IMG/VR virus record: IMGVR_UViG_3300045988_047412
Location: 1 to 41,316 of that record
Origin: a virus
DNA: 41,316 bases
Reading direction: 5' to 3' (one strand)
The notes under the pieces are model-generated. The model did not search any database and was not told the DNA's origin. It was given only the letters and a program-made list of their open reading frames with translations. This document shows positions 5,597 through 33,882 of this stretch, piece by piece. The position numbers and the translations under genes are program-made. Position 1 is the first letter of the stretch. The number at the start of each line of letters is the position of its first letter.

Positions 5597-5745
5597 TGTT
5601 TGATGTCCCCCTCTTTGGTGTAAACACCGTCAAACTCAAGGCCATGCTCCCTCGACCAGATCTTGCCGAACTCCGTCATGATCTTCACCGGGTCAGGCGG
5701 AGACACCCAGATCACCCGGTATTCGATTTTTCGTTTCTTCGCCAT
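5593..5745 (-). CDS. 50-aa hypothetical protein
   Basis: MAKKRKIEYRVIWVSPPDPVKIMTEFGKIW...; purine-rich RBS; first gene after the Cro-like gene. Confidence 0.5.
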   Translation of the reverse strand: MAKKRKIEYRVIWVSPPDPVKIMTEFGKIWSREHGLEFDGVYTKEGDIKQ

Positions 5746-5813
5746 TGCCTTTTCCTTTCCCCTGTGCTAAAATAGCGACAGGATACATATCTGAGCCTAA
5801 GATTTGTTCCGCC

Positions 5814-5851
5814 GCCCTGCCCGGTCTGCAACACCGGACGGGGCATTTTTT
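5814..5851. promoter_or_regulatory. GC-rich hairpin with a CTGCAAC loop (GTTGCAG on the minus strand) directly after the Cro-like gene
   Basis: GCCCTGCCCGGT-ctgcaac-ACCGGACGGGGC followed by ATTTTTT on the plus strand. Loop core is shared with hairpins at 6131, 6188 and 8843. Confidence 0.6.
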
Positions 5852-6077
5852 ATTCCCCATCGCTGGATTCGAACAGTTCGTCCACCGTCACGCCGTACAT
5901 CCTCGCCAGCTTCTTGTGGTACTTCCGTGCCGGTCGCCAGTCACCCAGCTCCCAATGCGTCACACAGGACAAGTCCACATTCAGTTTCTTCGCTACCTGT
6001 GCACGGGTCAGGCTGGAACGTTCTCGAAGTTCCTTCAATGCCAAGTCATGTGCCCTCCTTTCGGTGTGAGAATTCAT
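5850..6077 (-). CDS. Cro-like XRE-family HTH regulator
   Basis: LKELRERSSLTRAQVAKKLNVDLSCVTHWELG. The ATG at 6077 has no SD; an in-frame TTG at 6044 sits 9 nt after AGGAGG and may be the true start. Confidence 0.8.
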   Translation of the reverse strand: MNSHTERRAHDLALKELRERSSLTRAQVAKKLNVDLSCVTHWELGDWRPARKYHKKLARMYGVTVDELFESSDGE

Positions 6078-6105
6078 TGACTGCGGCAGAAATATGTGGT
6101 ATGGT
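6077..6105 (+). promoter_or_regulatory. Sigma-70-type promoter TTGACT-N17-(TGg)TATGGT
   Basis: -35 at 6077..6082, 17-nt spacer, extended -10 TGgTATGGT ending at 6105. Divergent from the Cro-like gene and overlaps its ATG. Confidence 0.55.
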
Positions 6106-6111
6106 AAGCAT

Positions 6112-6230
6112 GGGAGTTAAACTACGCGCCAAATGGCGTACTCTGTTGCAGAGGGGTATTCCATTTAGCAAACGAGTTCGCTTCCAACCGCTCCGAAGTT
6201 TGTTGCAGAGACTTCGGGGCGGTTTTTTAT
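6112..6230 (+). ncRNA. Candidate small RNA (about 115 nt) with two hairpins that both show a UGUUGCAGAG loop; the second is an intrinsic terminator
   Basis: Promoter at 6077-6105. Hairpin 6131..6166 (AAATGG..TACTC-tgttgcagag-GGGTA..CCATTT). Hairpin 6188..6222 (CCGAAGT-ttgttgcagag-ACTTCGG) followed by T6 at 6223-6228. Confidence 0.45.
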
Positions 6231-6258
6231 CTCTGCCGCAGTCAATGTGAGTTTTCAC

Positions 6259-6287
6259 TTGACAAACGAAACCGCCGCCGCTATCAT
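6259..6287 (+). promoter_or_regulatory. Near-consensus promoter TTGACA-N17-TATCAT for the plus-strand immunity operon
   Basis: -35 at 6259..6264, exact 17-nt spacer, -10 at 6282..6287. Confidence 0.6.
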
Positions 6288-6481
6288 GTAAGTGTCAGCC
6301 AACAAAATATCGTCTATGGAACCCGCAAAAAGGATTTTTCTTTGGGGGTCTGGTTTTTTGTTGTCTCTATGATAACTCACGAGATTATTATAGCTTACAT
6401 TTTGTGTGTTGTAAAGCCAAACACGACCATTTTGTTGGTTTTTGTGGAATTGCACAAAAATACATCTATTTTTTGGTAGAT

Positions 6482-7183
6482 ATGCTTTTAGACATTGACT
6501 TAATTCTTGCGCGGCCTAAAGGGCCGAATAACCCGTATGCCTATTATCCAGAACAGTATGAACAAAATTCATCACAAAGCATTATTGCGGCGAACTACAA
6601 ATATGATTTAACTCGTTTTTCGCAACATGAAGCGGATGTCGTCAGGAAAGTGCTGTCTATCGTTAAAACAAAGTACCCTGCGGAATTTCAGTCTCTTGGG
6701 CTTGTGAACGAGGCGTATGTAATAAAGTACAAGCCCCGATACGTACTTTTTGAAATTGCCGTAACAAAATATAGAAATTCGGCATCGGCTTTTGATAAAT
6801 TCGCGGTTGCTTATGCGTTTGCGAACAAAGGAGCTGATTTTAGGCTTGCTGCAATCGGAGCGTTTGAAGAAGCAATCGGAAAAATACCATTTACTGTTTT
6901 AGATAAATTTGCATCGTTAGACTTTACATTTACATGCAATATGTTTTCCAAGTTATACGAGCAAGAGTGGGAATTTGACAACGCCATATTTTGGTTAAAA
7001 AAGGCGATTCGCCGTGGTGGATTAAACAGCAAGTATTTCGCTGAGAGAATCAATAAAATAAAGAAAAGAAAAATTGACGTAATCAGGAACAACAAGCACA
7101 AGCGGAATAGACGGATATCTGTTGAAAACGAAAAATTTGAGCATGACGTACACGCTGCTGCATTACGATTTATTCAGGAGTAG
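6482..7183 (+). CDS. Hypothetical protein, first gene of the low-GC immunity island
   Basis: 233 aa counted from MLLDIDLILARPKG (the ORF track starts at an alternative codon at 6404). No motif recognised; basic KKRK-rich C-terminus. Confidence 0.6.
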   Translation: MLLDIDLILARPKGPNNPYAYYPEQYEQNSSQSIIAANYKYDLTRFSQHEADVVRKVLSIVKTKYPAEFQSLGLVNEAYVIKYKPRYVLFEIAVTKYRNSASAFDKFAVAYAFANKGADFRLAAIGAFEEAIGKIPFTVLDKFASLDFTFTCNMFSKLYEQEWEFDNAIFWLKKAIRRGGLNSKYFAERINKIKKRKIDVIRNNKHKRNRRISVENEKFEHDVHAAALRFIQE

Positions 7184-7185
7184 AT

Positions 7186-7623
7186 ATGCCAAAAAGAGAT
7201 ACAGTCCAACCAAACGTAGATTCGATAGCAGAAAAAGTTTCGGCTAAAAGCTGGAGCGAAGCATCATTTTCGAAAATGATCGGGAAACACAAGAGGTGGT
7301 TAAGTGAAGTAAGGCGTGGGAAAAATCTCCCATCCCCAGAAGAAGCCGCACGGATATGTCAGCTTCTTAAAGCTACTCCCGACGAAATTTTGTTGTGCGA
7401 GGGGGAAACCCCAGAAGCAACCGCAAAGTGCTTAGAGAATATTGAGACGGTGCGGAAACTGGTCGAGGCTGAGGGCATAAAAGAAACCCCCGATCCGAAG
7501 ATCGAGGGTGTGAGCGCGGAAGCGCAGGAAATATTAGATTATATCCGGGATGCGACACCCGCCGAACTGGCGGAAGTCTGCCGGTATATCGGGTATCTGA
7601 AAAGCAAGAGGGGCACGGAATGA
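7186..7623 (+). CDS. HTH DNA-binding protein, candidate CI-like repressor
   Basis: 145 aa; SFSKMIGKHKRWLSEVRRGKNLPSPEEAARICQLL HTH; RBS CAGGAG. Confidence 0.65.
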   Translation: MPKRDTVQPNVDSIAEKVSAKSWSEASFSKMIGKHKRWLSEVRRGKNLPSPEEAARICQLLKATPDEILLCEGETPEATAKCLENIETVRKLVEAEGIKETPDPKIEGVSAEAQEILDYIRDATPAELAEVCRYIGYLKSKRGTE

Positions 7624-8063
7624 AACTGAACCCAGATTGCTTGCGGGATATTATGCTTTTGGTCGAAGATCGTATTTCCGTTGAAACTGCGATTGAAAAT
7701 CCAAATGGGCTAAGAAAATTTAGCTATGTCAGCATTCCCTGTTTGGTGCGCTTGCTTCCTGACAGCTATTCAAAAGAAGAGATCATATATCATATTGTGC
7801 AGCTTTCAGAAAGCGGATACTTAAAAACAGATTTTTCCTTTGCAACAAGCGAAATGTTTGGATACTTTTACTTGAATACAATTTATCACATCACGCCAAA
7901 AGGCCATGACTTTATCGCAAACATCGGGGGAAAAGAAAGCTGGGCAAAAACAAACGCTGTTTTAAAATCCTTGAAGTCAATATCTCTATCGGTAATTGAA
8001 ACGGTGGCAAAGGGTATCACTTCGGCCATAGTAGATCAATACATTGCAGGCTTTCAGGCATAA
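7620..8063 (+). CDS. DUF2513-like protein
   Basis: MKLNPDCLRDIMLLVEDR... N-terminus typical of DUF2513 prophage proteins. ATGA overlap with the upstream gene. Confidence 0.55.
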   Translation: MKLNPDCLRDIMLLVEDRISVETAIENPNGLRKFSYVSIPCLVRLLPDSYSKEEIIYHIVQLSESGYLKTDFSFATSEMFGYFYLNTIYHITPKGHDFIANIGGKESWAKTNAVLKSLKSISLSVIETVAKGITSAIVDQYIAGFQA

Positions 8064-8286
8064 TACTGTACCCGCCGTCATTATTGGCGGTTACAGAAAT
8101 GGGAGCGCTCTTGAATGCTCCTTGCTTTAGCGTTTCATAATTGCTGCATTTAATAGCCTCCGCCAAACAGCCTGGAACAAGCGTAGCGCATTCCGCCGAA
8201 ATGCCAGACGCTTCTAATACGTTGAGACACGCGTTTACAGCTTTAAGGACGTTGGGATTTTCATACCACAATTGATTATACACCAT
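8017..8286 (-). CDS. Hypothetical protein
   Basis: 89 aa with a strong RBS (AAAGGAGGAAACG ATG). Convergent with 7620..8063 and overlaps it by 47 nt. Confidence 0.55.
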   Translation of the reverse strand: MVYNQLWYENPNVLKAVNACLNVLEASGISAECATLVPGCLAEAIKCSNYETLKQGAFKSAPISVTANNDGGYSIMPESLQCIDLLWPK

Positions 8287-8393
8287 CGTTTCCTCCTTTA
8301 ATCATTCGCAGCAATTCTACCTGTTCCTCTTGCGGCAAAAGCAGTACGGCATGCATCAGTTTGTTGCGAATTTCTTCAAGCTGTTCTGTTGCC

Positions 8394-8422
8394 ATTATAT
8401 CACAGTTTGCCGGTAAATCCAA
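8394..8422 (-). promoter_or_regulatory. Near-consensus promoter TTGGAT-N17-(TGa)TATAAT
   Basis: Minus strand reads TTGGATttaccggcaaactgtgaTATAAT; -35 = 8417..8422, -10 = 8394..8399. Drives gene 8017..8286. Confidence 0.6.
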
Positions 8423-8584
8423 CATCTATGTATCCTCCGTTCATCATTTGCGAATAGAACGTCTGTTCGATTATTATAGCACACCACCATGATTTTGCAA
8501 CCGAAAGATATGGGGGCATGACGGTTGCCCGCGCATATTGAATATTTACATATACGCATATAAAAGAATGAAAGGAGCTTTACT

Positions 8585-8833
8585 ATGGTTTGCCCTAATT
8601 GCGGAAGCGAAAATGTAACAATCTCTATGGAGCAAGTGTCAAGTAAAACCAAAAAGCACGGGAACGGCATCGGAGGCCATATCAACAATGCTGCTCGCGG
8701 CTTGATGGCGGTATCAACCCTTGGCATGTCTAATCTCGTGTGGAAGAAAAGCAAAGGTGGCGAAAAGACCGTTGTAAAAAATCAAAAGATTTGCCTTTGC
8801 CAGAATTGCGGAAACTCTTGGGAAATAAAGTAA
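8585..8833 (+). CDS. Zinc-ribbon protein
   Basis: MVCPNCGSENV...CLCQNCGNSWEIK; RBS GAAAGGAG. Confidence 0.7.
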   Translation: MVCPNCGSENVTISMEQVSSKTKKHGNGIGGHINNAARGLMAVSTLGMSNLVWKKSKGGEKTVVKNQKICLCQNCGNSWEIK

Positions 8834-8836
8834 GTG

Positions 8837-8879
8837 AAAAACCCGGCCCCGCCGCCTCTGCAACAAACGGCGGAGCCGG
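8837..8879 (-). terminator. Intrinsic terminator on the minus strand, an inverted homolog of the 6188 hairpin
   Basis: Minus strand: CCGGC-u-CCGCCGU-uuguugcagag-GCGGCGG-g-GCCGG then GTTTTTC. The U-G pair exists only on the minus strand. Confidence 0.6.
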
Positions 8880-9037
8880 AAGCAAGCCGGGGGACGTCGG
8901 CTTGCCGTAATCAAAGCGTAGCAAAAACAGGGTTGGGTGGGCAAGTCCCAAAGCTTGGTTTTTGGCATTTTCAGCCGTTTAAAAGTTTGTGCCGCCTTTA
9001 CCCATATTTTGATTTTGGGGGTAAGGAGGCACTTTTT

Positions 9038-9472
9038 ATGACAATTCAGGAAGTTTGTAAGGCGAAACGTAACGCTTTGGGTATGACCATTCAGGACATA
9101 GCTGAAGCATCGGGAATTCCGCCGTCTACCGTCAACAATTTCTTTACCCATGCTTCCAAGGCCCCCTATATCTCCACGGTTGGGCCAATATGCGCCGTCC
9201 TTGGCGTGTCGCTGGATGAATTTTACGGCATCGGAGATCATCTGACGGCCAGTGAGGAAACGTTGCAAGCGGAAAAGGACGGACTAGAACACCGCCTTGA
9301 GAATAAGCGGCAGACCATCGGCCTGATGGACACAGAACTGTGCAATCTTTGGCACTCCGTGAAGCTATACAGGTGGATCATACTCGGTTTGTCACTATTG
9401 ATCATCGGGCTTTTTGCCTGGTGCGTTTGGGTTGACATCCATTGTGCTAACTATGGATTTTGGAGGGGATAA
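9038..9472 (+). CDS. XRE-family HTH protein with a C-terminal transmembrane helix
   Basis: 144 aa; LGMTIQDIAEASGIPPSTVNNF HTH, coiled segment, then WIILGLSLLIIGLFAWCVWV. RBS TAAGGAGG; stops 2 nt before the integrase start. Confidence 0.75.
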   Translation: MTIQEVCKAKRNALGMTIQDIAEASGIPPSTVNNFFTHASKAPYISTVGPICAVLGVSLDEFYGIGDHLTASEETLQAEKDGLEHRLENKRQTIGLMDTELCNLWHSVKLYRWIILGLSLLIIGLFAWCVWVDIHCANYGFWRG

Positions 9473-9473
9473 C

Positions 9474-10814
9474 ATGTGCCAAAAAATAGTGGTCACTCTA
9501 CCAAAGAATCTACGCATCCGTGTAGCACTGTACATCAGGGTATCGACCGAAGAACAGGCGAAGCACGGACTGTCACTGGCAGACCAGCGGGAGGCCCTGA
9601 CGGCCTATGCCGCAGCACACAACATGGAGGTGGTGGGCATTTACGAGGACGCCGGAATTAGCGCCAGAAAGCCGTATAAAAAGCGTCCGGCCTTGATGCG
9701 CCTACTCGATGATTGCAACGCTGGGAAAGTCGACACCATCCTTTTTGTCAAGCTGGATAGGTGGTTTCGGAATGTGGCAGGGTACTACGCCGTGCAAGAG
9801 GTTCTCGACAAAAATCATGTGGCTTGGCAGGCCATCAGAGAGGACTACGAAACTCGGACTGCATCAGGGCGATTGAAGGTCAATATTATGTTGTCGGTAG
9901 CGCAGGACGAAGCTGACCGCACATCGGAGCGCATTAAGGCCATCAACGAGGGCAAGAGGGCAAAGGGTCAGCCCACCAACGGGAAAACTCCCATCGGCAT
10001 CTGCGTGAAGAATCGGCACTACGCCATTGATAAAGAAACCGCAGATGCGGCGCGAGATATGTTCCCAGCCTTTATACGGCTGCAAAGCATCCTTGCATTA
10101 AGGCGGTATATGGCAACGGAGTGGGGAATCAAACGCTCGTACAACAAATACAAGGATGCTTTGGGAAACCGGTTGTACTTGGGTGAGGCGTTCGGCGTGG
10201 AAAACGCATTGCCAGCACTCATCGATCAAGAAACCTTTGACCTTGCCGGAAAAATCCTTGAACGGCGAAGCCAGCGGAACGCCAGTGCGGATCGAATATA
10301 TTTGTTTACCGGGATTCTCCGCTGCCGGGAGTGCGGGAGAAACATGCAGCCGGAAACTGTAAAACAGGTGTACAAGTACTACCGATGCAGAACGCACACA
10401 CTCGACCCAGCCGACTGTCCGCACATTCTCAGGATCCGGGAAGATGTGCTGGAGGATTACCTTCTGCGGGAATTTGAGGGGATCGCAAAAAAGTATTACT
10501 CCAAATCAAAAACCGCAGAAAAAAAGCCGCCCAAAACGGCGGAGCAAATCAAGCGGAAAATGCAAAAACTGAAAGACCTGTATTTGTCGGATTTGATTGA
10601 AATCGAAGAATACAAAAAAGACTATACGGAATTGAAACAGCAGCTCGCGGCAATAAACCCAGAGCCTATAAAAGAATTTGACCTTGAAACATTACGGCGA
10701 GAGTTGAAGGAATATCCTGATTTAGACCGGCAGGCAAAAAAGGAATTCTGGGTACGCACAATCCAGCGCATCGACGCAGACAATGATGGTGCGTTTTTTA
10801 TAACGCCAAGTTAG
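9474..10814 (+). CDS. int: Large serine recombinase (phage integrase)
   Basis: 446 aa; ALYIRVSTEEQ...GLSLADQ resolvase catalytic domain, recombinase domain, zinc ribbon CRECG...YYRCRTH, C-terminal coiled coil. RBS GGAGGGGA. Confidence 0.9.
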   Translation: MCQKIVVTLPKNLRIRVALYIRVSTEEQAKHGLSLADQREALTAYAAAHNMEVVGIYEDAGISARKPYKKRPALMRLLDDCNAGKVDTILFVKLDRWFRNVAGYYAVQEVLDKNHVAWQAIREDYETRTASGRLKVNIMLSVAQDEADRTSERIKAINEGKRAKGQPTNGKTPIGICVKNRHYAIDKETADAARDMFPAFIRLQSILALRRYMATEWGIKRSYNKYKDALGNRLYLGEAFGVENALPALIDQETFDLAGKILERRSQRNASADRIYLFTGILRCRECGRNMQPETVKQVYKYYRCRTHTLDPADCPHILRIREDVLEDYLLREFEGIAKKYYSKSKTAEKKPPKTAEQIKRKMQKLKDLYLSDLIEIEEYKKDYTELKQQLAAINPEPIKEFDLETLRRELKEYPDLDRQAKKEFWVRTIQRIDADNDGAFFITPS

Positions 10815-10856
10815 TCTTATTTTCATGTCGCAACGCCTACGTTAAAATATAACTAA
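10811..10856. other. Candidate attP for the serine integrase
   Basis: 46-bp imperfect dyad right at the integrase stop: TTAGTCTTATTTTCATGTCGC-AA-CGCCTACGTTAAAATATAACTAA. Outer TTAGT/ACTAA and ATTTT/AAAAT match. Confidence 0.3.
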
Positions 10857-10881
10857 CCCCCCGGCATTTGCCGAGGGGGTT
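10855..10881. terminator. Bidirectional hairpin terminator between the convergent integrase and cargo operon
   Basis: AACCCCC-CGGC-attt-GCCG-a-GGGGGTT, with an A-rich run upstream and a T-rich run downstream. Confidence 0.7.
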
Positions 10882-10885
10882 AAGT

Positions 10886-11188
10886 TTAGTTTTCCAATTT
10901 CCGCATGACGCTATTATAAACCCGCTCGTTGACCACTTTCAAGCTGTCCATCAGCTCGTCCATGACCTCCCACGCACGGGCTGTGTCAACGTTAGACACC
11001 GCCCGGAGGAAATCGCTGTCAGGCGCGGGAGCCGCAGAATACGCCTCAGCCATACGGCTTTCCCTCACCGGCTCTCGGTTCTGGTTTTGGATGGTATACA
11101 GTGCCGCCAGTCTTTCATAGTTCGCCCAGCTGGACTCTTCTGTTTCTAACCGCTTGATCCATAGCGCCAATTCTCGCTCGTCAATCAT
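10886..11188 (-). CDS. Hypothetical helical protein (last gene of the cargo operon)
   Basis: 100-aa ORF, MIDERELALWIKRLETEESSW...; no motif recognised. Confidence 0.6.
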   Translation of the reverse strand: MIDERELALWIKRLETEESSWANYERLAALYTIQNQNREPVRESRMAEAYSAAPAPDSDFLRAVSNVDTARAWEVMDELMDSLKVVNERVYNSVMRKLEN

Positions 11189-11582: not shown

Positions 11583-12008
11583 TCAGCAAACTCTGGTAAT
11601 GATAAGGTTCGCGTTGCTCACGTCAATAGACTCGTCGCTAACGTTGCGGATGGACAGCGACGCGCAGCAGCCCTTTGTAACGTCAACGTACTCGGACGCC
11701 GCCACGTTGAAAAATGCCCCCGCAACCGTGGGCGTCACCGTCGCAACGGAGGACGGGAGCGGCTCACCGTCAACCGCAATGGCAACGGAGATGGGGCCGG
11801 GGGTCCCGCCGGTGCTTACGGCAATATTGCCGATAAAGTCCACCTTATAGCGGACGCGGCACTGGGAGCAGTTACCACGGAGGTTAAACAGGCCGGAGCC
11901 TGCGCGGTGCGTCACAAGGCCCTTAGTGCAGGGGATCGGTGCTTCCGTAAAAAGCACGTTCTGGTTTGCCGCTACGGTCTGTGCGGCAATGGCAGTGTAT
12001 TCAGGCAT
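11583..12008 (-). CDS. BclA-C-terminal-like (C1q/TNF jelly-roll-like) domain protein
   Basis: 141 aa. The pattern Q.V..NQNVLF...G..H..GSGLFNL.G...Y.V.F...V...G..ISVAIAVDG..LP.S......A...N.....V.....SLSIRN.S...I.V..ANL.I.R resembles exosporium BclA C-terminal domains. Six Cys, including the terminal C. Confidence 0.5.
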   Translation of the reverse strand: MPEYTAIAAQTVAANQNVLFTEAPIPCTKGLVTHRAGSGLFNLRGNCSQCRVRYKVDFIGNIAVSTGGTPGPISVAIAVDGEPLPSSVATVTPTVAGAFFNVAASEYVDVTKGCCASLSIRNVSDESIDVSNANLIITRVC

Positions 12009-12124
12009 AGAAATCTCCTTTCATAAAATCAGCGGCAGGGCTACTGCCCCGCCGCTTTGTCATCAGTATCGGCATGGGGCCGACCATTTCCCCGACATGG
12101 AGGAAAAGCTACGTTATGCAGTTG

Positions 12125-12841
12125 TCAGCAACCGCATCCGGCAAACTGGTTGCAGCAATAGGGGTTCTGCACCGTGTAGGCCGGAATGGGAGAAGGCCGG
12201 AGCTGAGAAACCAGATAGCTGTTCTGTGCCGCCTGAGATGCGGCCAGCTTCAAGCCCTGGTTCTCGCTCTGGAGATCCTGCAGCTTGCTCTGGGTCAGGA
12301 AATCCAAAATGGCGCGGCTGTTGCTGTTGGCATTGTCGATAATGTCCCGGGTGGCGTTCTGCACCGTGTTCCGGGTATCGCACGCCTGCGCGGCCATGTC
12401 ATAGCGCACGCCCTCGATGCTGCGCTGGGTGTTGCAGCAGCACTCAGCGGCCTGCATCTGCATGGCAGTCAACTGCTGCATGAGAGCCGCCTGCTGGTTA
12501 CTGCGGGAAAGCTCAGCCTGCCCAAAGCCGTTTGCCATCGCCATGTTGGTGCCGTTGATAAGCTGCGCCTGCTGGTAAAATCCGTCGCAAAGCCCCTGAT
12601 TTACACTGTCGATCTTGCGCTCGACATTGGCAAAATCAGAGGTCAGGACATAACCGTCCATCACGCCGTTGCCGCCGCCACCGAAACCAAAGCCGTTACC
12701 CCAGCCACCGAACGCAGCGAAAATGAGGAACAGCACGATCCACCATGCGCCATCGCCGCCCCAGCCGAAGCCGTTACCGTTTCCGGTGTTGGCAGGAGCC
12801 ACAGGCATAGTCAGCATGGTGCCGTCAGAGGAAAGAGACAT
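12125..12841 (-). CDS. Gly-rich membrane protein with a Gln-rich coiled region and a Cys-rich C-terminus
   Basis: 238 aa; GNGNGFGWGGDGAWWIVLFLIFAAFGGWGNGFGFGGGGNG (YjcZ-like tiny-TM composition); AAECCCNTQ; C-terminal NPYCCNQFAGCGC. RBS AAAAGGAG. Confidence 0.7.
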   Translation of the reverse strand: MSLSSDGTMLTMPVAPANTGNGNGFGWGGDGAWWIVLFLIFAAFGGWGNGFGFGGGGNGVMDGYVLTSDFANVERKIDSVNQGLCDGFYQQAQLINGTNMAMANGFGQAELSRSNQQAALMQQLTAMQMQAAECCCNTQRSIEGVRYDMAAQACDTRNTVQNATRDIIDNANSNSRAILDFLTQSKLQDLQSENQGLKLAASQAAQNSYLVSQLRPSPIPAYTVQNPYCCNQFAGCGC

Positions 12842-12894
12842 AGTATCACTCCTTTTGAAAAAATATTTATATCAAACCGTGGCCACGATTTTGA

Positions 12895-13116
12895 TTACTT
12901 GAAAAGCCCCTGAAATTGGTTTGCCATTGACTGTATCTTGTTCAACTGATCTTGTGAGATTTTGCCGCTTTGCAGCATCTTCTCCACTTCCGCTTTTGGG
13001 TCGCCTTTAAAACTTGCCTTGAACTGCTTGAACTGCTGTAAAAGCTGAGGAAAGCCGCTCATCGACCCCGGCATCTGTCCGCCACCTAACGCATTGAAAA
13101 ACGGATTGTTACTCAT
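12895..13116 (-). CDS. Small hypothetical protein
   Basis: 73 aa, MSNNPFFNALGGGQMPG...; overlaps the upstream gene by 8 nt. Confidence 0.6.
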   Translation of the reverse strand: MSNNPFFNALGGGQMPGSMSGFPQLLQQFKQFKASFKGDPKAEVEKMLQSGKISQDQLNKIQSMANQFQGLFK

Positions 13117-13543
13117 CGTCCTCTTCCTCCTCTACCTTGCGCTTCTTCTTGCCCTTCAATTCGCCCACAAGCGCCGCTAGTGCGTCGAATTCTTTTCTGG
13201 TGACAAACTCCACGCCCTTTTCCTGCGTGGCTGTACGGGGCGTTTCTGTGCGTTCTACGAGGTCATAAATCGTGAGGGACGGTTTACCGCTGGCATCCGC
13301 CTTCTTGAGGTACACCGTAGGCGCGGAGCTGTCCCACAAAGCCACGGCGGCATTGGGCGCAATCATCCAGTTCCGGGCCTCCTGTTCGCCGCTGACCCAC
13401 TGCACACCGCTCTGCGCCACCGGATTCTGAGGAGGCTGTGGTGCCATCATTGGAGGCATCTGCTGTTGACGGAGTTGTGCCAGATTATCCGGCATGGGCT
13501 GTGCATAATAAGGGTTTTGCCATCCGTAAGGTGTGTAAGCCAT
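13109..13543 (-). CDS. Pro/Gln-rich hypothetical protein
   Basis: Start taken at the second ATG, 9 nt after AAGGAGG. P/Q/M-rich N-terminus, conserved-looking core VQWVSGEQEARNWMIAPNAAVALWD, acidic-basic tail. Confidence 0.65.
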   Translation of the reverse strand: MAYTPYGWQNPYYAQPMPDNLAQLRQQQMPPMMAPQPPQNPVAQSGVQWVSGEQEARNWMIAPNAAVALWDSSAPTVYLKKADASGKPSLTIYDLVERTETPRTATQEKGVEFVTRKEFDALAALVGELKGKKKRKVEEEEDDE

Positions 13544-13544
13544 T

Positions 13545-13925
13545 TTAGTCATCCTCCTTGACCCAGTAATACAAGATGTTCTCGTTGCTGCTGTCCCAGC
13601 TGTCCCAGATCATGCCGTCGCAGACGCAGACCACATGGCCGGACAGAGCCAGAATATAGGTGCCTTTTGGGTGATCCTCCGCAAATTGGCCCACCGTGTA
13701 GCAGTCTGGGCAGGTGTCCGGCACGATGTACCGCCGATATCCGATGCTGCGGAGATACCGCCCCCAACAGGCGTTTGCCGACGGCATATCCCCGTCCAGA
13801 TACCCTTGGATACAGAGCCGCAAATAAATTTCGCCCCAATCCATCCCGGTAGCCTTGACGATTGCCCGCACGGTGCAGTCCCCTACATTTTTCCCGCAGG
13901 GGTTGGGGTTGAAATGGTTATACAT
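13545..13925 (-). CDS. Hypothetical protein with a papain-like Cys/His arrangement
   Basis: MYNHFNPNPCGKNVGDCTVRAI ... LSGHVVCVCDGMIWDSWDS. The Cys...His...Asp order is compatible with a cysteine-peptidase fold (inference only). Confidence 0.5.
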   Translation of the reverse strand: MYNHFNPNPCGKNVGDCTVRAIVKATGMDWGEIYLRLCIQGYLDGDMPSANACWGRYLRSIGYRRYIVPDTCPDCYTVGQFAEDHPKGTYILALSGHVVCVCDGMIWDSWDSSNENILYYWVKEDD

Positions 13926-14055
13926 ACTCCCTCCGGTCATCGTAGATCAGCTCAATCATGCGCACACAGCGTTCCAGCTCCGCTGGATCGGTCTGCGCAA
14001 CAATATCTCGCGCCAACTCCACCGGATACCCGCAGGCCAAAAGCCGCTCGTACAT
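13918..14055 (-). CDS. 45-aa hypothetical protein, first gene of the cargo operon
   Basis: MYERLLACGYPVELARDIVAQTDPAELERCVRMIELIYDDRREYV; RBS AAAGGAGG 8 nt upstream. Confidence 0.5.
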   Translation of the reverse strand: MYERLLACGYPVELARDIVAQTDPAELERCVRMIELIYDDRREYV

Positions 14056-14102
14056 TGTGTGCGCCTCCTTTACACTTCTATGATACAAAAAATCCGGACA
14101 GC

Positions 14103-14145
14103 CAAACTGCCCGGAAACTGCCTGTATTCTGCCCTCAAACTGCCC
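14103..14145. repeat. Three helically phased direct repeats CAAACTGCCC / GAAACTGCCT / CAAACTGCCC
   Basis: Copies at 14103, 14114 and 14136 (11- and 22-bp spacing), between the terminator at 14150 and the cargo operon start. Confidence 0.8.
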
Positions 14146-14149
14146 AAAG

Positions 14150-14180
14150 AAAAGCCGTGTCCGAATCGGACACGGCTTTT
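14150..14180. terminator. Perfect palindromic bidirectional terminator
   Basis: AAAAGCCGTGTCCGA-a-TCGGACACGGCTTTT, immediately after the stop of gene 14183..14419. Confidence 0.8.
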
Positions 14181-14182
14181 CT

Positions 14183-14419
14183 CTATCCCTGCATATCATC
14201 CGCAATTTTTGCGTAGGCCCTTCGTCTGATCTTGGCCAACCCATCTACGCTGACGTGGAGCAGCGCCGCCGCTTGCAGGCAGCTCTGGCCGTGGACGTCC
14301 ACCGCCAGCACCGCCGCTTCCTCGTCAGGCGGCAAGCCTACCAGCCGGACGGCCTGCGCCGCCCGGGCCGGGGCCATGGATGACAACAGCGCCCGGATCT
14401 CTCGGTTTGTTTTTTCCAT
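14183..14419 (-). CDS. Small sigma-70 region-4-like HTH protein
   Basis: 78 aa; LPPDEEAAVLAVDVHGQSCLQAAALLHVSVDGLAKIRRRAYAKI resembles sigma region 4 / LuxR-type HTH. Confidence 0.6.
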   Translation of the reverse strand: MEKTNREIRALLSSMAPARAAQAVRLVGLPPDEEAAVLAVDVHGQSCLQAAALLHVSVDGLAKIRRRAYAKIADDMQG

Positions 14420-14487
14420 AGGTTCCCCAGACTTGCAGAGCGCTAAAAAGCGTGGATGTTGCCATCTTCTGGCCCTCCTTTCAGATT

Positions 14488-14889
14488 TTAGCCTGTCCAG
14501 TCGGCTTTTGCTTCCCTCACATCAATGTGCGTGAAGCCTTTCTTGGCGTAGATGCCGACGCCGCCCCAGTCTGGCATGATCGACCGGGCGAAGGCCGCCA
14601 CCGTCTCCGGCTTCTGGCCGCTGACGGAGATATCCGCCGCCATGCCATAGCAGTGCTGGCTATGGGCCACGCCGCCAACCTTGGCATTGTACTGCGGCGT
14701 GCGATAGGCGCTTTGGATCACCACCGGAGCGCCGAAGTGGGCGCGGATGGTCTCCAGCACCATCACCAGCCGGGGAGCCACCAAAACAGCGTCACTGCCG
14801 TCTCCACACGCAAACTCCCGCTCCTTGAAATGGGCGGATAGCTGCTTGCCCCCGGAGGCGGCTTTGCTGTAAGCGTGGATCTCAACCAT
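14488..14889 (-). CDS. Peptidase M15A-family cell-wall hydrolase (endolysin candidate)
   Basis: FKEREFACGDG...IQSAYRTPQYNAKVGGVAHSQHCYGMAADI: Zn-ligand pattern of M15 D,D/L,D-peptidases. Confidence 0.75.
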   Translation of the reverse strand: MVEIHAYSKAASGGKQLSAHFKEREFACGDGSDAVLVAPRLVMVLETIRAHFGAPVVIQSAYRTPQYNAKVGGVAHSQHCYGMAADISVSGQKPETVAAFARSIMPDWGGVGIYAKKGFTHIDVREAKADWTG

Positions 14890-15562
14890 GGTTATCCCCC
14901 CAGATCTGATACAGCGCCCGGACCATGTCGGCTCGGGTCACCGTCTCACCGGCGTTGGCGTCCGTCAGCAGGCGGTGAGACTTGCCCCATACGAGGGCTT
15001 GATCTTCCGGTTTTGCCGACCGCTCCCAGAACAACAGCAGCGTGGGCACCTTCCGGCTGCTAACCACCTTCCCGCCGGGGAAAATGCCCTGCGTGGAGCC
15101 GCCGCCGTCCAGCATGAGGGCGTCCATCACGCCCAGCCCCAGCAGCTTGTTCTGGAGCTGTTCACGGGTCAGGCTTGTCTTGTCGCACCACAGACAGACT
15201 TTGCCGTTAGCCAGCCAGCCCACCGCCGTCCGGGCGGCAGGCCGGGCCACGTCCGGCGTCAGCTCCCGGTACAACTTGGAGCCGCCCTTGAGGATCGAGA
15301 CGCCGGAGAGGAAGGATCCTCCCCGGTCCGTCAGCATCTTTGGCAATCCGTCAGTGCCGATGGACACGCCCCAGTCTTGGTATTTGTCCCGGCTGATGAC
15401 CTTGCCGTCAATCACCGTCCAGCCCACCGGCTGGAACTTGCCGTTAAACAGGTATCCGTTGATGATGTGGGTGCAGCCGGTCTTTGCCTTGATTTGCGCC
15501 GGGGTCAGCTTGCCGGTGTTGTGGTAGATCTGCGCTCTTGCGCAATCAAACGTATCAACCAT
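14882..15562 (-). CDS. Phosphodiester glycosidase (NAGPA/DUF2233)-family protein
   Basis: IINGYLFN...RTAVGWLANGKVCLWCD...LGVMDALMLDGGGSTQ, typical of the family. Start at the internal Met (15562). Confidence 0.6.
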   Translation of the reverse strand: MVDTFDCARAQIYHNTGKLTPAQIKAKTGCTHIINGYLFNGKFQPVGWTVIDGKVISRDKYQDWGVSIGTDGLPKMLTDRGGSFLSGVSILKGGSKLYRELTPDVARPAARTAVGWLANGKVCLWCDKTSLTREQLQNKLLGLGVMDALMLDGGGSTQGIFPGGKVVSSRKVPTLLLFWERSAKPEDQALVWGKSHRLLTDANAGETVTRADMVRALYQIWGDNHG

Positions 15563-15881
15563 GGCGCACGCGGGAAGCCTTGATGAAGTAGCCGTCCTCG
15601 TCATAAGTCACCTCATAGGTGGCTCCGACGATCCGCTGGATCTGGACGGTGCCCGCCAGATCCTCCCGGCGACGGGTATCCAGCGTCTGAGGAAGCGCCT
15701 CCGGCTCCTTCTCAGCGGGGACGAAGCCCTCCGCCATCTCGGCATCCGTCCAGCCCGCTACCTTACCGTCCGGATTCAGGTGGAAGTTTGCCCCCGCCGC
15801 TTTCAGTTCGGCGTTGATAGCTTCCACGGGCGCGCCCTGCTTCTTGCCCTCGTTGATGATATTCTCGTAGATCTTTTCCAT
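15555..15881 (-). CDS. Hypothetical protein
   Basis: 108 aa from MEKIYENIINEGKKQG; lies within the lysis region. Confidence 0.55.
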   Translation of the reverse strand: MEKIYENIINEGKKQGAPVEAINAELKAAGANFHLNPDGKVAGWTDAEMAEGFVPAEKEPEALPQTLDTRRREDLAGTVQIQRIVGATYEVTYDEDGYFIKASRVRHG

Positions 15882-15924
15882 GGTATGTACCCCTTTCAAA
15901 TTTTCGGTTGATTTTCAACCGGTT

Positions 15925-16116
15925 TCAACTGTTTTTGTCCTCGTTGACTCTCTGGGTGCCAAAGTAGAAGCCGATGACCACCGTGAAGATGGTCAGGAAC
16001 TCGCTGCCGCTGATGGTCTCCCGCAGCGCCAGCACCGAAAATACCCCCGTCAGGGTGATGGTCACCAGCGACTTCACCGCCAGCAGATTGCCCAGCCGTT
16101 TCTTGATGTTCTCCAT
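15925..16116 (-). CDS. Holin candidate (two predicted TM helices)
   Basis: 63 aa; LLAVKSLVTITLTGVFSVLAL and FLTIFTVVIGFYFG; RBS AAAGGAGAAAAAC. Confidence 0.6.
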   Translation of the reverse strand: MENIKKRLGNLLAVKSLVTITLTGVFSVLALRETISGSEFLTIFTVVIGFYFGTQRVNEDKNS

Positions 16117-16128
16117 GTTTTTCTCCTT

Positions 16129-16434
16129 TCACTCTTTTCGGATCGGCAGCTCGCCGACCTCGGACATAATGATTTTCAGGTGTCCGTTGCCGCCAAGGGA
16201 TTTGTACGCCTGGTGCATCTCGTCAAGCGTTTCCCTGTCCGACAGGCTTACGCTGCCGTCAGAGATGTACTTCTGGCCCAGATAGAGCACCCGGTCGATC
16301 AGCAGCACTTTCAGCGCGTCCACGATGGCGTCCCGCTTGTCATCTTTGGCCCACTTCCGCTGGAGCAGGGCCAAAACAATGGCCGTGACCCCGGAGCCGG
16401 TGGCGGCAGTTAATACAATTTGTAAAATTTCCAT
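16129..16434 (-). CDS. N-terminally membrane-anchored phage protein (holin-associated?)
   Basis: 101 aa from MEILQIVLTAATGSGVTAIVLALLQRKW; RBS AAGGGGGTG. Confidence 0.55.
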   Translation of the reverse strand: MEILQIVLTAATGSGVTAIVLALLQRKWAKDDKRDAIVDALKVLLIDRVLYLGQKYISDGSVSLSDRETLDEMHQAYKSLGGNGHLKIIMSEVGELPIRKE

Positions 16435-16495
16435 TTCACACCCCCTTAAAAAGTTGCAGTTTTTAGGGTAGTTCCGACTTGCTTTCGTGCAGTTA

Positions 16496-16579
16496 AAATT
16501 CCGGCCATTGTCTCTCGCACAAAGGGCAAACCCACCGCCCCTCCGGCACAATGGCTCCGCATATCACGCAATAGTCCAT
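16496..16579 (-). CDS. 27-aa zinc-ribbon mini-protein (tentative)
   Basis: MDYCVICGAIVPEGRWVCPLCERQWPEF; starts 2 nt after the fibre stop. No clear SD. Confidence 0.3.
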
Positions 16580-16581
16580 GG

Positions 16582-18036
16582 TCAGTCGGTGGTCTTGGTG
16601 TATTTAAGCGTCGCATCAACACCATTTGTGTATTCTTTGATTCGAGCTAAGGCGTTAGAGCCAAGCTCAAATTTTATAACAGACGAATTTAACATATACT
16701 GAGCCGACCATGCAGTTGAATCAAAGTACGACCACGGGAGTATCCTGATCCAATCAGCTCTGCAATACACGCGTGCATCTACTAGGCGGTCCAGATGATC
16801 GATTCCATGGCTATACGATGGAAGCTGATTTTCAAAAGCGGATACTGGAATATTAAAGGTCTTTGTGTACACCGGCTTTCCGAGATACCGCTCCGTGGTG
16901 CGGTACTCAGTGCCAAGCGTCATGGGCGGGTTGATCCATTCGACGGGCTGCCAATTCCCGTTATCCTTCAGCATTCGCCACAATCCGTTGGTAGTGCCTC
17001 TCGGGTCGGGCGAAAGGCCGATCAGTGATGCGCTCGTCCCCAATATTTTTGATAGAACGGCAACGATATTCCCGGCCCCAGAATATTGGCCCGTTGAAAC
17101 TGGGCCACGTGTATAAATAAGTTGCGATGTTCCGTCGGGCATATCGGCAAGCAACATATCAAGCTTGCCACAGTATGTTTCATAGGTGTCTTCGGCATCA
17201 GATGCGAGCACATCTTTCATCGCTTCACCCCACCCAAACCCGCCGGGGGCGGAGTTGATATTTTTCCGCGCCTGCGCCTTCTGCGCATCGCTGAGCGTCT
17301 GCGGCGTGTAGAGCACCGCACCCTGTACGGTGTCCGCGCCGATGTTCGTCCGCGCCTGCGCCTTCTGCTCGTCTGTGAGGTTCTGGGGCGCATCGTAGCG
17401 GACGAAGTTGCTGGAACCGCCCACGGGGCCTTCCGGGCCTTGCTTGCCCTCCGGCCCCTGCTTTCCCTCAGGGCCTTGGATGCCCTGCTTGCCCTGCGGG
17501 CCTTGCAGGTTGCCGTTGGCCACCCACTTGCCGTGGACAGAATCCCAGATGTAGATGTTGTACGGAGGCGCGGTGCCCACGCCGTACACGTCACCGGCCT
17601 TGGGATTAGGGACGGCTGCCTTGAGGTCGGCCAGCGTGTCAAAGTAGCCCAGAATGGCGAAGCTGGCCCCGGCCTCGCCGGGATCGCCCTGGTCGCCCTT
17701 TTTGCCGGGAGGGCCAATGGGGCCTTTAATGGACGTCAGCGTCGTCAGCTTGAAGGCGTACACCCAGTTGGCCGTGCCCTTGAGGTACACCTTGCCGTAG
17801 TCCGCGGAGGCCGTGATGTCCGGCAGGATCAGGACGAACTGGCCGCGCTGGACGTCCGTACCGGTGAAGTCCTGGTTCATTTCGGTCACGCTCTTGTACT
17901 CCTTTGTAATGCCGATAGGCACACCGGCGGACGCCAGCCGCGCGTCGATTTCCTCGCCGGAGTAGGCGGATGTGTAGTAGTCTTGCAGTTTGGCAAAAAT
18001 TTCCTCCAAAGCTGCGACTCTCTGTTCAATCGTCAT
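16582..18036 (-). CDS. Tail fibre / receptor-binding protein with collagen-like repeats
   Basis: 484 aa; G-X-Y runs at 17668..17727 and 17416..17505; two copies of PQ.L(T/S)D.QKAQAR.NI (17254..17388). The C-terminal about 170 aa lie in visibly lower-GC DNA. Confidence 0.8.
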   Translation of the reverse strand: MTIEQRVAALEEIFAKLQDYYTSAYSGEEIDARLASAGVPIGITKEYKSVTEMNQDFTGTDVQRGQFVLILPDITASADYGKVYLKGTANWVYAFKLTTLTSIKGPIGPPGKKGDQGDPGEAGASFAILGYFDTLADLKAAVPNPKAGDVYGVGTAPPYNIYIWDSVHGKWVANGNLQGPQGKQGIQGPEGKQGPEGKQGPEGPVGGSSNFVRYDAPQNLTDEQKAQARTNIGADTVQGAVLYTPQTLSDAQKAQARKNINSAPGGFGWGEAMKDVLASDAEDTYETYCGKLDMLLADMPDGTSQLIYTRGPVSTGQYSGAGNIVAVLSKILGTSASLIGLSPDPRGTTNGLWRMLKDNGNWQPVEWINPPMTLGTEYRTTERYLGKPVYTKTFNIPVSAFENQLPSYSHGIDHLDRLVDARVYCRADWIRILPWSYFDSTAWSAQYMLNSSVIKFELGSNALARIKEYTNGVDATLKYTKTTD

Positions 18037-18046
18037 GTTTCACACC

Positions 18047-20266: not shown

Positions 20267-20267
20267 A

Positions 20268-20639
20268 TCATTTCTCCGTAAACGCAAGCACCATGCCCGT
20301 CCAATATTCTGCAGCGTTCGTTCCGGTTCCTCTGTCAACGCCCTCTGGAGGATCGCACGTCATGTTTGCCGTGCGATATCCTCCGCTTTGAGTGTCGAAA
20401 AAATATACGCTCAGATTTCCACTGTACAGTTGCTCGAGTAACGTGTTCAGCTGTGTTTCCGTTAGAGGCATACACGTACAGGTAATAACTGCCTTGATTG
20501 CAAGCACGTCCTCCGTGAAGCTGCCGTCCAGCATGTATCCCTCGTTTGGCCCCTTAATTTTCTTGTGTCCCACCTTGTAGCCGACCGGCGTAAAGTAGGA
20601 TGTAAAATCAATACCGTTGATCTTGATCGTTTTACTCAT
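20268..20639 (-). CDS. Distal-tail-protein-position small tail component
   Basis: 123 aa, immediately after the tape measure (4-nt overlap). Confidence 0.55.
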   Translation of the reverse strand: MSKTIKINGIDFTSYFTPVGYKVGHKKIKGPNEGYMLDGSFTEDVLAIKAVITCTCMPLTETQLNTLLEQLYSGNLSVYFFDTQSGGYRTANMTCDPPEGVDRGTGTNAAEYWTGMVLAFTEK

Positions 20640-33329: not shown

Positions 33330-33810
33330 TGATACTTAGCTTTTTACGCTTCCTCGCCCGCTGGCCGGGATGGTACGGCATTGCAGTCCTGCCCTGCTTT
33401 AGCGCTTCAGGAAAAGTCCCCGTCACTCGCTGTGGTCTCCCCTTACGGGGCACCTATGCCGCATATCTCCGCAGTGAGCCGGTCGGCGCTCCGGCATCTC
33501 CAACAATGCGAGTATTTGCGGTCTCGCCTCCGGGCGGCAGATTGCCTTTCTGCCCTCCACTGCGGTACTGCCGTCTAAAACTGCTGCCACCGTGCGCAAT
33601 CACAGTGACCTGCTGGAACTTCGGCAGCGTAGTTTGTCCAAATGTCCCCTCTGGGACACATCGTTGAGAGGTGCGAGGGGTCCTATACCCAACCGGAATT
33701 GCACCGGGGCATCAAGGGCAAGTACCAGTTGCCGGAGATGAGCTGCTTTTACAGGCCGCAGCTTATATATTCTTGGAGCGAGGACGCATCACCCGAAACG
33801 CTCCCCGCCA
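33330..33810 (-). ncRNA. Candidate large structured non-coding RNA (ROOL/GOLLD-like class; boundaries and strand uncertain)
   Basis: No minus-strand ORF of 60 aa or more between 33133 and 34028. Dense local hairpins include CCCC-GUAA-GGGG (33439..33450, GNRA only on the minus strand), 33643..33658, 33717..33733 and 33478..33495. Long-range 8-bp pairing 33469..33476 with 33558..33565. Adjacent tRNA-like element. Confidence 0.4.
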
Positions 33811-33882
33811 TGGTGCAGACGGCTGGACTTGAACCAGCGCATACCTCCTGGCGCGGTGCTCTGCCTACTGAGCTACGTCTGC
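33811..33882 (-). tRNA. tRNA-like element with an encoded CCA but no anticodon stem (pseudo-tRNA or processing handle)
   Basis: GCAGACG-TA-GCTC-AGTAGGCA-GAGC-[19 nt ACCGCGCCAGGAGGTATGC]-GCTGG-TTCAAGT-CCAGC-CGTCTGC-ACCA. Acceptor, D and T arms are perfect. Confidence 0.55.

Follow-up and report, generated by a model that had tools for sequence, protein, structure and literature searches.

A shared heptaloop, or its exact complement, on hairpins with different stems suggests an RNA recognition code in a temperate phage

The DNA analyzed here (the window) is the complete 41,316-nucleotide (nt) stretch of virus record IMGVR_UViG_3300045988_047412, an apparently complete temperate siphovirus-type genome of 41.3 kb. 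The leftward early genes start from a cro-like gene of the XRE helix-turn-helix (HTH) family (5850-6077, minus strand), and the late genes are transcribed leftward from about 37.9 kb to 10.9 kb. On the plus strand, a gene for an HTH protein with a transmembrane-like segment (HTH-TM; 9038-9472) is followed by a large serine recombinase gene (9474-10886). Around this lysis-lysogeny switch, and again ahead of an inferred lysis cassette in the late region, hairpins were found to carry the heptamer GUUGCAG, or its exact complement CUGCAAC, in their loops. The presence of the same loop or its complement on at least five hairpins with different stems suggests an undescribed RNA recognition code, probably one of loop-loop pairing. 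The hairpins and the genes beside them are given below; L numbers denote the collected relative loci and contigs that were compared with the window, and lengths of proteins are in amino acids (aa).

5814 to 5844, plus strand: H4, intrinsic terminator of a putative small RNA (sRNA-4), RNA loop CUGCAAC; its T-run (5846-5851) overlaps the stop codon of the cro-like gene
5850 to 6077, minus strand: cro-like XRE HTH gene, 75 aa, divergent from sRNA-1
6112 to 6228, plus strand: putative sRNA-1 with two GUUGCAG hairpins, antisense within the leader (about 300 nt) of the leftward cro mRNA
6131 to 6166, plus strand: H1, located internally in sRNA-1 and carrying the motif in its loop; in L088 the loop is identical but the stem is another one
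6186 to 6224, plus strand: H2, terminator hairpin of sRNA-1, loop GUUGCAG, then T6; based on fold, wobble pairs and covariation
8842 to 8880, minus strand: H3, a paralogue of H2, loop GUUGCAG, then T5; left edge of the conserved HTH-TM module
9038 to 9472, plus strand: HTH-TM, an XRE HTH protein of 144 aa with a C-terminal hydrophobic (transmembrane-like) segment; H3 always lies about 185 nt upstream
16132 to 16434, minus strand: first gene of the inferred lysis cassette, 101 aa, with an N-terminal hydrophobic segment, located after the tail-fibre gene
16443 to 16468, minus strand: hairpin masking the Shine-Dalgarno (SD) sequence, mRNA CCCUAAAAA-CUGCAAC-UUUUUAAGGG, in the leader of that first gene; newly found here

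The 10-mer TGTTGCAGAG was located exactly at 6144-6153 and 6201-6210 on the plus strand and at 8856-8865 on the minus strand, and with one mismatch at 5824-5833 (minus strand). The 9-mer TGTTGCAGA has four copies against 0.51 expected, a count of four or more was reached in 0 of 100 shuffles, and every copy lies in a predicted hairpin loop. A first-pass annotation of this DNA had described four hairpins here, three of them with a shared 10-nt loop core. All four sites indeed fold with the motif unpaired and the 10-mer is exact at three of them, but the true loop is the heptamer GUUGCAG with a U-A closing pair, and the flanking UU and AG(G) pair as U-A and U.G. The T and G that had been read as bulged form a U.G wobble pair, which is C-G at the same place in relatives. 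The hairpin at 5814-5844 is real as well; it shares the 9-mer and not just the seven nucleotides credited to it, and the terminator is on the plus rather than the minus strand. Since H4 is the terminator of a rightward RNA, its RNA loop is the complement, CUGCAAC. A partial TTTGTTGC near 8360, formerly counted with the family, has to be dropped: it forms no hairpin, lies inside an open reading frame (8276-8425, minus strand), and such an 8-mer is expected about once by chance.

The predicted folds were stable, with -26.6 kcal/mol for H2 (6184-6230; z = -6.5), -31.5 kcal/mol for H3 (8836-8884, minus strand; z = -5.3) and -54.5 kcal/mol for the entire 6112-6230 unit (z = -7.45). The probability of being unpaired was 0.92-0.99 for all loops, and 0.98 for H1. 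The window has 259 sites at which a 7-nt loop is closed by a stem of 6 base pairs (bp) or more, and CTGCAAC/GTTGCAG was the sole loop occurring more than twice among them (n = 4, at 5826, 6202, 8858 and 16453). In 100 Markov shuffles the corresponding maximum was 2 in 94, 3 in 4 and 4 in none. The copy at 16453 lies in the late region and was absent from the first-pass list, so the hairpin at 16443-16468 extends a family that had been placed at the lysis-lysogeny switch only. The GC-rich copies of the motif in the 41-kb phage number only four, all within the switch region.

Conservation was analyzed in a non-circular collection, for which 80 viral loci were gathered via the HTH-TM protein alone (53-100% aa identity) and the 260 nt upstream were aligned, giving 53 distinct sequences. 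All 53 share, without variation, the 12-mer CCTCTGCAACAA (TTGTTGCAGAGG on the minus strand), which forms the longest invariant run of the aligned region, exceeding the run around the ribosome-binding site; six or more versions of the stems around it occur. To the left of the HTH-TM gene, homology starts exactly at H3, and further upstream lies unrelated cargo. When 33 distinct GC-rich hairpins of the H2, H3 and H4 types were compared, 91.9% of the cells were paired (slid controls dropped to 43-60%), the loop columns never varied, and the observed covariation score was reached by 0 of 500 shuffles. Changes on both sides were found in 9 of 12 pairs, in agreement with the earlier proposal of compensatory stem differences around a kept loop. 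The loop is also far more constrained than ordinary terminator loops, being invariant in the alignments of relatives, and lies in hairpin loops of the homologous regions of related phages, as had been anticipated. In the clade reached via the L088 homologue (38% identical to the window protein), GUUGCAG stands on a wholly different stem (GGCCCCUCUGCCG/CGGCAGGGGGGCC) and the flanks are lost, so the heptamer is regarded as the core.

A pair that is G.U on one strand is a C.A mismatch on the other, and such pairs were counted over distinct variants. The ratio of wobble pairs on the GUUGCAG strand to those on the opposite strand was 9:3 for H2, 32:5 for H3 and 4:12 for H4. The U-tracts lie on the plus strand for H2, mostly on the minus strand for H3 and, in all variants, on the plus strand for H4. 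The strand given by the wobble pairs agrees with the U-tracts and with conserved extended -10 promoter-like sites, and these sequence patterns (G.U pairs, T-runs and promoter-like sites) indicate a function at the RNA level. H2 (plus, T6), H3 (minus, T5) and H4 (plus, T-run) have the form of intrinsic terminators. Termination alone does not define the family, because H1, the lysis-leader hairpin and some H3 versions (L088 and the L359 clade) are without a U-tract.

The switch hairpins would be carried by three small RNAs, sRNA-1, sRNA-2 and sRNA-4, as judged from promoter-like sites and terminators. The elements from which these units were deduced are as follows.

5745 to 5773, plus strand: promoter-like site of sRNA-4, TTGCCT-17-TAAAAT with a TG extension; the short rightward RNA would end at H4
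6075 to 6094: left arm of a 20-bp operator-like inverted repeat (95% complementary), overlapping the -35 element of the sRNA-1 promoter
6077 to 6105, plus strand: promoter-like site of sRNA-1, TTGACT-17-TATGGT with a TG extension (TTGACT-17-TATACT in L088, TTGACT-17-TATATT in L356)
6228 to 6247: right arm of the operator-like inverted repeat, pairing with 6075-6094
6259 to 6287, plus strand: P_R, rightward promoter-like site TTGACA-17-TATCAT, then the conserved leader AAGTGTCAGCCAACAAAATATCG
6387 to 6415, minus strand: P_L, strong leftward promoter-like site TTTACA-17-TATAAT, convergent with P_R (TTGACA-17-TATAAT in L088, L130 and L356)
8881 to 8906, minus strand: second hairpin of the putative leftward sRNA-2, CAAGCC..GGCUUG with a C-rich loop; a compensatory version, CAGGCAGA..TCTGCCTG, occurs in L187-L201

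The putative sRNA-4 is a short rightward RNA (about 5780-5851), and an equivalent extended -10 promoter on the plus strand precedes the terminator at the H4 position in L088, L170/L169/L172/L150, L356 and L365. The sequence of sRNA-1, in which H1 and H2 start 57 nt apart, is nearly identical in 57 viral contigs and has diverged homologues in L088 and L356. In the latter two, inverted repeats of other sequence flank the sRNA in the same arrangement; a changed repeat in a kept arrangement is expected for operators of the divergent cro-like protein. A transcript from P_L would cross sRNA-1 in antisense on its way to cro. P_R and P_L stand face to face, with a transcript overlap of about 90 nt that holds the conserved leader AAGTGTCAGCCAACAAAATATCG ... 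GGTTTTTTGTTG, kept across immunity types (L088, L130, L179 and L356), and 6259-6415 is a convergent-promoter switch core. The putative sRNA-2 is a small leftward RNA upstream of the HTH-TM gene that would end at H3. H2 and H3 are clear paralogues, forming a 39-nt inverted repeat (79%). An open reading frame that runs in frame through H3 (8834-9472) was rejected as coding there, because the indels of relatives are not multiples of 3.

In the late region, the mRNA continues after the 16443-16468 hairpin as GG-UGUGAA-AUG, the 3' arm of the hairpin is the SD sequence, and the loop CUGCAAC is the exact complement of GUUGCAG. The gene that follows (16132-16434) precedes one whose 63-aa product has two hydrophobic segments, as well as the NAGPA/Peptidase_M15 endolysin genes; the product of 16132-16434 itself, which gave no match to a holin family, would from its position be a holin-like protein and the first of the lysis cassette. 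Both hairpin and loop are kept in 50 of the 53 distinct sequences upstream of the 101-aa gene, in loci collected via its protein, and in other relatives the same leader hairpin stands ahead of a first gene that is a different one (74 aa) and shows no evident similarity to it in sequence. The stems of the leader hairpin occur in at least four versions (CCCUAAAAA/UUUUUAAGGG, CCUUAAAA/UUUUAAGG, CCUAAU/AUUAGG and CCUUAAU/AUUAAGG), and this AU-rich hairpin shares only its loop with the other members of the family. Rare variants of the loop, CUGUAAC and CUGCAAU, retain pairing with GUUGCAG via G.U, and in L273 a larger leader loop matches 10 nt of the invariant block. The predicted energies of the loop-loop duplexes were -8.7 kcal/mol (7 bp), -12.2 kcal/mol (9 bp, with sRNA-4) and -12.8 kcal/mol (L273). 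Complementary and accessible loops are accordingly predicted on RNAs that would be transcribed separately, H1, H2 and H3 on one side and H4 and the lysis leader on the other (-8.7 to -12.2 kcal/mol).

Two further observations were made beside these hairpins. The loop of the 8881-8906 hairpin (CCCCC) sits 5' of GUUGCAG, and the SD of the lysis leader (GGGGG) sits 3' of CUGCAAC; this order is right for a possible second pairing contact, and no covariation of that loop with the type of SD was seen. In the relatives L215-L272, the sequence ahead of the lysis-leader hairpin contains a unit of about 27 nt, TTGCACGAAAGCAAGTCGGACTTTTGAC, two or three times in tandem, and the window (16471-16500, minus strand) has one full copy; a late promoter or an array of activator-binding sites may lie here.

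The loop was also found outside the window's own immunity type. A diverged sRNA-1 in L303 and L356 has four GUUGCAG loops in 110 nt, and in two other immunity types the motif lies in a small hairpin at the extreme 5' end of the P_R transcript. Small hairpins of 4-5 bp, which are incapable of termination, carry it as well. Such a display in several copies, on the four-loop sRNA-1 and at the 5' end of P_R transcripts, fits recognition in trans. In L356 (4960-5700) the four-loop sRNA-1 lies between two tandem leftward cro-like HTH genes and is flanked by its own covarying inverted repeat, TTGACTTCGGCGGGG / CCCCGCCGAAGCCAA.

The explanation we favor, with a probability of about 0.4, is that these hairpins are RNA elements recognized in trans through the one heptaloop, or its complement, that they display, most likely by loop-loop (kissing) pairing. 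The putative sRNA-1 would show GUUGCAG twice (H1 and H2) and sRNA-2 once (H3), and the sRNA-4 terminator and the lysis-gene leader would show the complement CUGCAAC. Small RNAs of the immunity region would then kiss the lysis-gene leader by 7-9 bp of loop-loop pairing, which may protect from untimely lysis, either by keeping the SD hairpin closed or by blocking the ribosome. In this scheme sRNA-4 would be a competing decoy, and the cro-like repressor would control sRNA-1 via the flanking inverted repeats. The first-pass annotation had left the choice between a protein site and a kissing partner. Kissing has gained support from the complementary heptaloops on two transcription units, the H4 terminator (plus strand) and the SD-masking hairpin at 16443-16468, and a protein partner is still viable.

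Several observations weigh against pairing with the lysis leader. The lysis-leader hairpin and the CUGCAAC form of sRNA-4 are restricted to the window's clade; the sRNA-4 loop is CUGCUAC in L356 and CGUCUAC in L088 and L365. The L359 and L365 clades and L088 keep the GUUGCAG of H3, and no CUGCAAC-loop hairpin was found there in about 15-20 kb, lysis genes included. L205 has all the GUUGCAG hairpins, but its holin cassette is another one, without the leader hairpin. Among the loci with enough flank, the H3-type hairpin occurs together with the lysis hairpin in 9 of 11 as compared with 0 of 18, an association that is confounded by shared ancestry; in two of those 18, other motif hairpins are present (L303 and, weakly, L340). 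The chance that one further hairpin of the window shows this loop or its complement is about 0.03, hardly negligible for a find that was post hoc. Finally, the 12-nt invariant block in the window's H3 clade exceeds what a 7-bp kiss needs.

The main rival, and a serious one although we consider it unlikely, is that an RNA-binding protein, either of the host or a conserved one of the phage, recognizes the GUUGCAG heptaloop sequence-specifically. In that case the small RNAs with several loops would serve as sponges or decoys, or the role of the protein would lie in modulating termination or stability at the hairpins, and the complementary loops would be coincidental or secondary. A conserved trans-acting factor would explain why the H3 loop is kept in clades that have no complementary hairpin in the sequence covered. 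The 12-nt block takes in the closing pairs, the two to four identical loops in tandem on one small RNA resemble protein-titrating small RNAs, and the motif recurs across different immunity (Cro) types. The last point argues against binders of the Cro/CI type, and the earlier suggestion that three phage HTH proteins bind the loop found no support. No candidate protein was found, and the only gene always linked to H3 encodes HTH-TM, whose fold is DNA-binding. Such a protein would also leave unexplained the exact complement on two hairpins whose RNA strand is fixed independently, one by the SD and the other by the T-run and wobble pairs, and the L359 clade loses the flanks of the heptamer but keeps the heptamer.

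It is improbable that the hairpins are ordinary terminators and a translational hairpin derived from one duplicated sequence, with the loop shared through ancestry and recombination at module boundaries and with no recognition involved. The paralogy of H2 and H3 fits such an origin, as does the graded series of loops at H4-position terminators (CUGCAAC, CUGCUAC, CGUCUAC); the positions of the hairpins coincide with junctions of the mosaic, and some copies of H3, whose left and right arms are of different types, look recombinant. Against this, the loop is invariant where its surroundings have diverged, namely the stems, the flanks and the adjacent protein, whose identity falls to 53% and further in other clades; the reverse would be expected of terminators. 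Common descent also sits poorly with the AU-rich lysis hairpin, which has nothing but the loop in common, and with the motif on 4-5 bp hairpins that cannot terminate. Still less probable is a DNA-level site for a DNA-binding protein such as HTH-TM, on duplex or extruded cruciform. H3 and the HTH-TM gene are tightly linked, with a constant spacing of about 185 nt, and operator-like boxes containing GCAG (CTGCTATG..CATAGCAG) lie between them in some clades. However, a dimeric HTH operator would have the opposite of the pattern seen here, an asymmetric conserved center inside palindromic arms that vary; the strand-specific G.U pairs and SD masking point to RNA, and the orientation is fixed relative to the transcription units.

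Known systems were compared with the kissing scheme. The small RNA OxyS is said to have been described by Argaman and Altuvia in 2000 as repressing fhlA in E. coli through kissing loops. Kissing by OxyS is also mentioned in PMC5793797. The likeness lies in small-RNA loops, the terminator loop included, that pair over 7-9 bp, by their loops only, with an mRNA hairpin loop at the ribosome-binding site; in the phage, by contrast, several RNAs and modules have the identical heptaloop in common, its complement is present on another small RNA as well, and the pairing is predicted from sequence. We know of no Hfq-type context in the Clostridia-type host, which is deduced from the spo0A neighborhood described below.

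The C4 RNA of P1 and P7, with its a/b target sites, and the CI RNA of P4, with seqA and seqC, are phage immunity antisense RNAs. There, as here, loops of immunity-region small RNAs match repeated complementary sites elsewhere in the same phage, but the target proposed here is a lysis-gene leader instead of an antirepressor or early operon, and the loops are on terminators. No match to the Rfam C4 clan was found at the gathering threshold, and the only c4-a1b1 match, a weak one (13.9 bits, E = 5.3) at 7542-7587, is unrelated to the hairpins. The sdi stem-loop of the lambda S gene acts in cis and chooses between two start codons. It likewise controls translation from the start of the first lysis gene, whereas the hairpin here masks the SD and has a loop complementary to trans-encoded RNAs. 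AgvB of enterohaemorrhagic E. coli is a prophage-encoded anti-sRNA, or sponge. It is a phage small RNA complementary to the seed of another small RNA and could serve as a decoy, as is proposed for sRNA-4; the complementarity here differs in being loop-to-loop between terminator hairpins and in occurring only in the window's clade.

Proteins read a short conserved loop, repeated on variable stems, in CsrB and RsmZ, which are protein-titrating small RNAs, and in the boxB-N recognition of lambda nut sites, which lie on both sides of the switch. The present hairpins resemble these in design, but have no GGA motif, no GNRA-like pentaloop and no boxA, loops of exact complementarity exist, and no N-like or CsrA-like partner was identified. 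A nut site of the lambda type was rejected on the basis of the 7-nt loop, the 12-16 bp stems, the termination of short units by H2 and H3, and the lack of a boxA-like block in the alignments. For an arginine-rich N-like antiterminator, the neighboring genes that were checked gave only HTH, DUF2513 and zinc-ribbon proteins, and no systematic search was made.

Other candidates were also set aside. ANTAR dual hairpins have hexaloops with A at position 1 and G at position 4, whereas the loops here are GUUGCAG heptamers on hairpins 57 nt apart from start to start. A CRISPR repeat, or a solitary repeat unit of the RNA anti-CRISPR kind, would be nearly identical over the whole unit with its stem; the CRISPR arrays whose repeats begin with GTTGCAGAGGGG share only those 12 nt, and the phage stems vary freely. 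These arrays, in Thermogemmatispora and a Myxococcota metagenome-assembled genome (L110, L111, L116-L118 and L121), match H1 by coincidence. About half of the 109 matches in a two-motif scan of viral contigs were coding tandem repeats with periods that are all multiples of 3. GTTGCAG at 12149 and 12431 (the latter with a weak covariance-model match at 12419-12451) represents Cys-Cys-Asn codons in a Cys-rich protein. Homotypic kissing via the UGCA palindrome of the loop is weak (only -4.5 kcal/mol). Mimicry of a tRNA-Cys anticodon loop by CUGCAAC is speculation; the anticodon arm of the phage tRNA-like gene is truncated, and the conserved flanks would be unexplained. The likeness of the motif to operator-like repeats with GCAG cores is too short to be meaningful.

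With a covariance model made from these hairpins, H2, H3 and H4 alone are recovered, apart from weak matches to H1 and a coding-region site that was rejected, and Rfam 15 holds no matching family at either threshold, consistent with the earlier remark that no motif of this kind has been described. Nor was there any sign, in the sequence covered, of a host-wide repetitive element, which had been raised as a possible refutation. A two-hairpin DNA-pattern scan of one genome per species returned only CRISPR repeats plus one 4-kb phage-like contig, and the host flanks of four integrated copies, about 8.6 kb of sequence, have no motif hairpin. The DNA search of the isolated-phage collection, in near and distant modes, gave no match, and a protein-pattern scan of species-representative genomes returned nothing. 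A literature search by sequence strings yielded primer noise only.

In integrated copies (L204, L206, L208 and L210; about 11780-20435), spo0A (210-223 aa) lies directly after the serine recombinase gene, and beyond it are NUDIX, spoIVB-type peptidase, ftsZ and murG-type genes. As judged from this gene order, the prophage of a Clostridia-type host appears to be inserted at the spo0A 3' end, the host being inferred because the recombinase gene abuts spo0A/spoIVB/ftsZ in metagenome contigs. The region between P_L and H3 (6340-8440) is AT-rich and variable, with 41-46% GC against about 55%, and is a cargo hotspot whose right boundary is exactly H3. Near-identical phages carry unrelated genes there (loci compared: L088, L130 and L208), among them those for DUF2513 and zinc-ribbon proteins; the L088 cargo includes a 403-aa protein whose C-terminus is restriction-endonuclease-like by appearance.

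Elsewhere in the genome, Rfam gave a tRNA-like gene at 33814-33882 (minus strand, 51 bits), which has an anticodon arm of 9 nt where 13 are expected and was not called by ARAGORN, and a skipping-rope RNA 250 nt from it (33470-33564, minus strand, 45 bits). The 238-aa protein at 12125-12841 (minus strand) has a Gly-rich N-terminus and repeated CCN/CGC motifs near the C-terminus; it belongs to phrog_16490, of unknown function, and is kept in all related clades, adjoining the attachment end. Directly downstream of the endolysin genes (to the left in window coordinates), a 78-aa protein (14183-14419, minus strand) has a weak match to sigma-70 region 4 and might regulate late genes.

This phage family is very abundant in human gut metagenomes, and for the exact HTH-TM protein the index of the assembly collection lists 3237 blocks. 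A limited literature search on holin, kissing and small RNA found nothing equivalent to the present hairpins. Ordinary termination does not account for a heptaloop that stays invariant on freely varying stems in different modules, immunity types and clades. The element lends itself to direct tests, since its loop is short and invariant and can be separated from the stems. Should the loop be read by a protein, Clostridia phages would have a new pair of RNA and protein recognition partners. If the loops pair, they would form a trans-acting RNA link from the immunity region to lysis-gene translation, with a decoy RNA built in; more tentatively, the loop could serve as a phage-wide address code, through which a network of kissing loops would couple the lysogeny switch to lysis translation in abundant gut Clostridia prophages.

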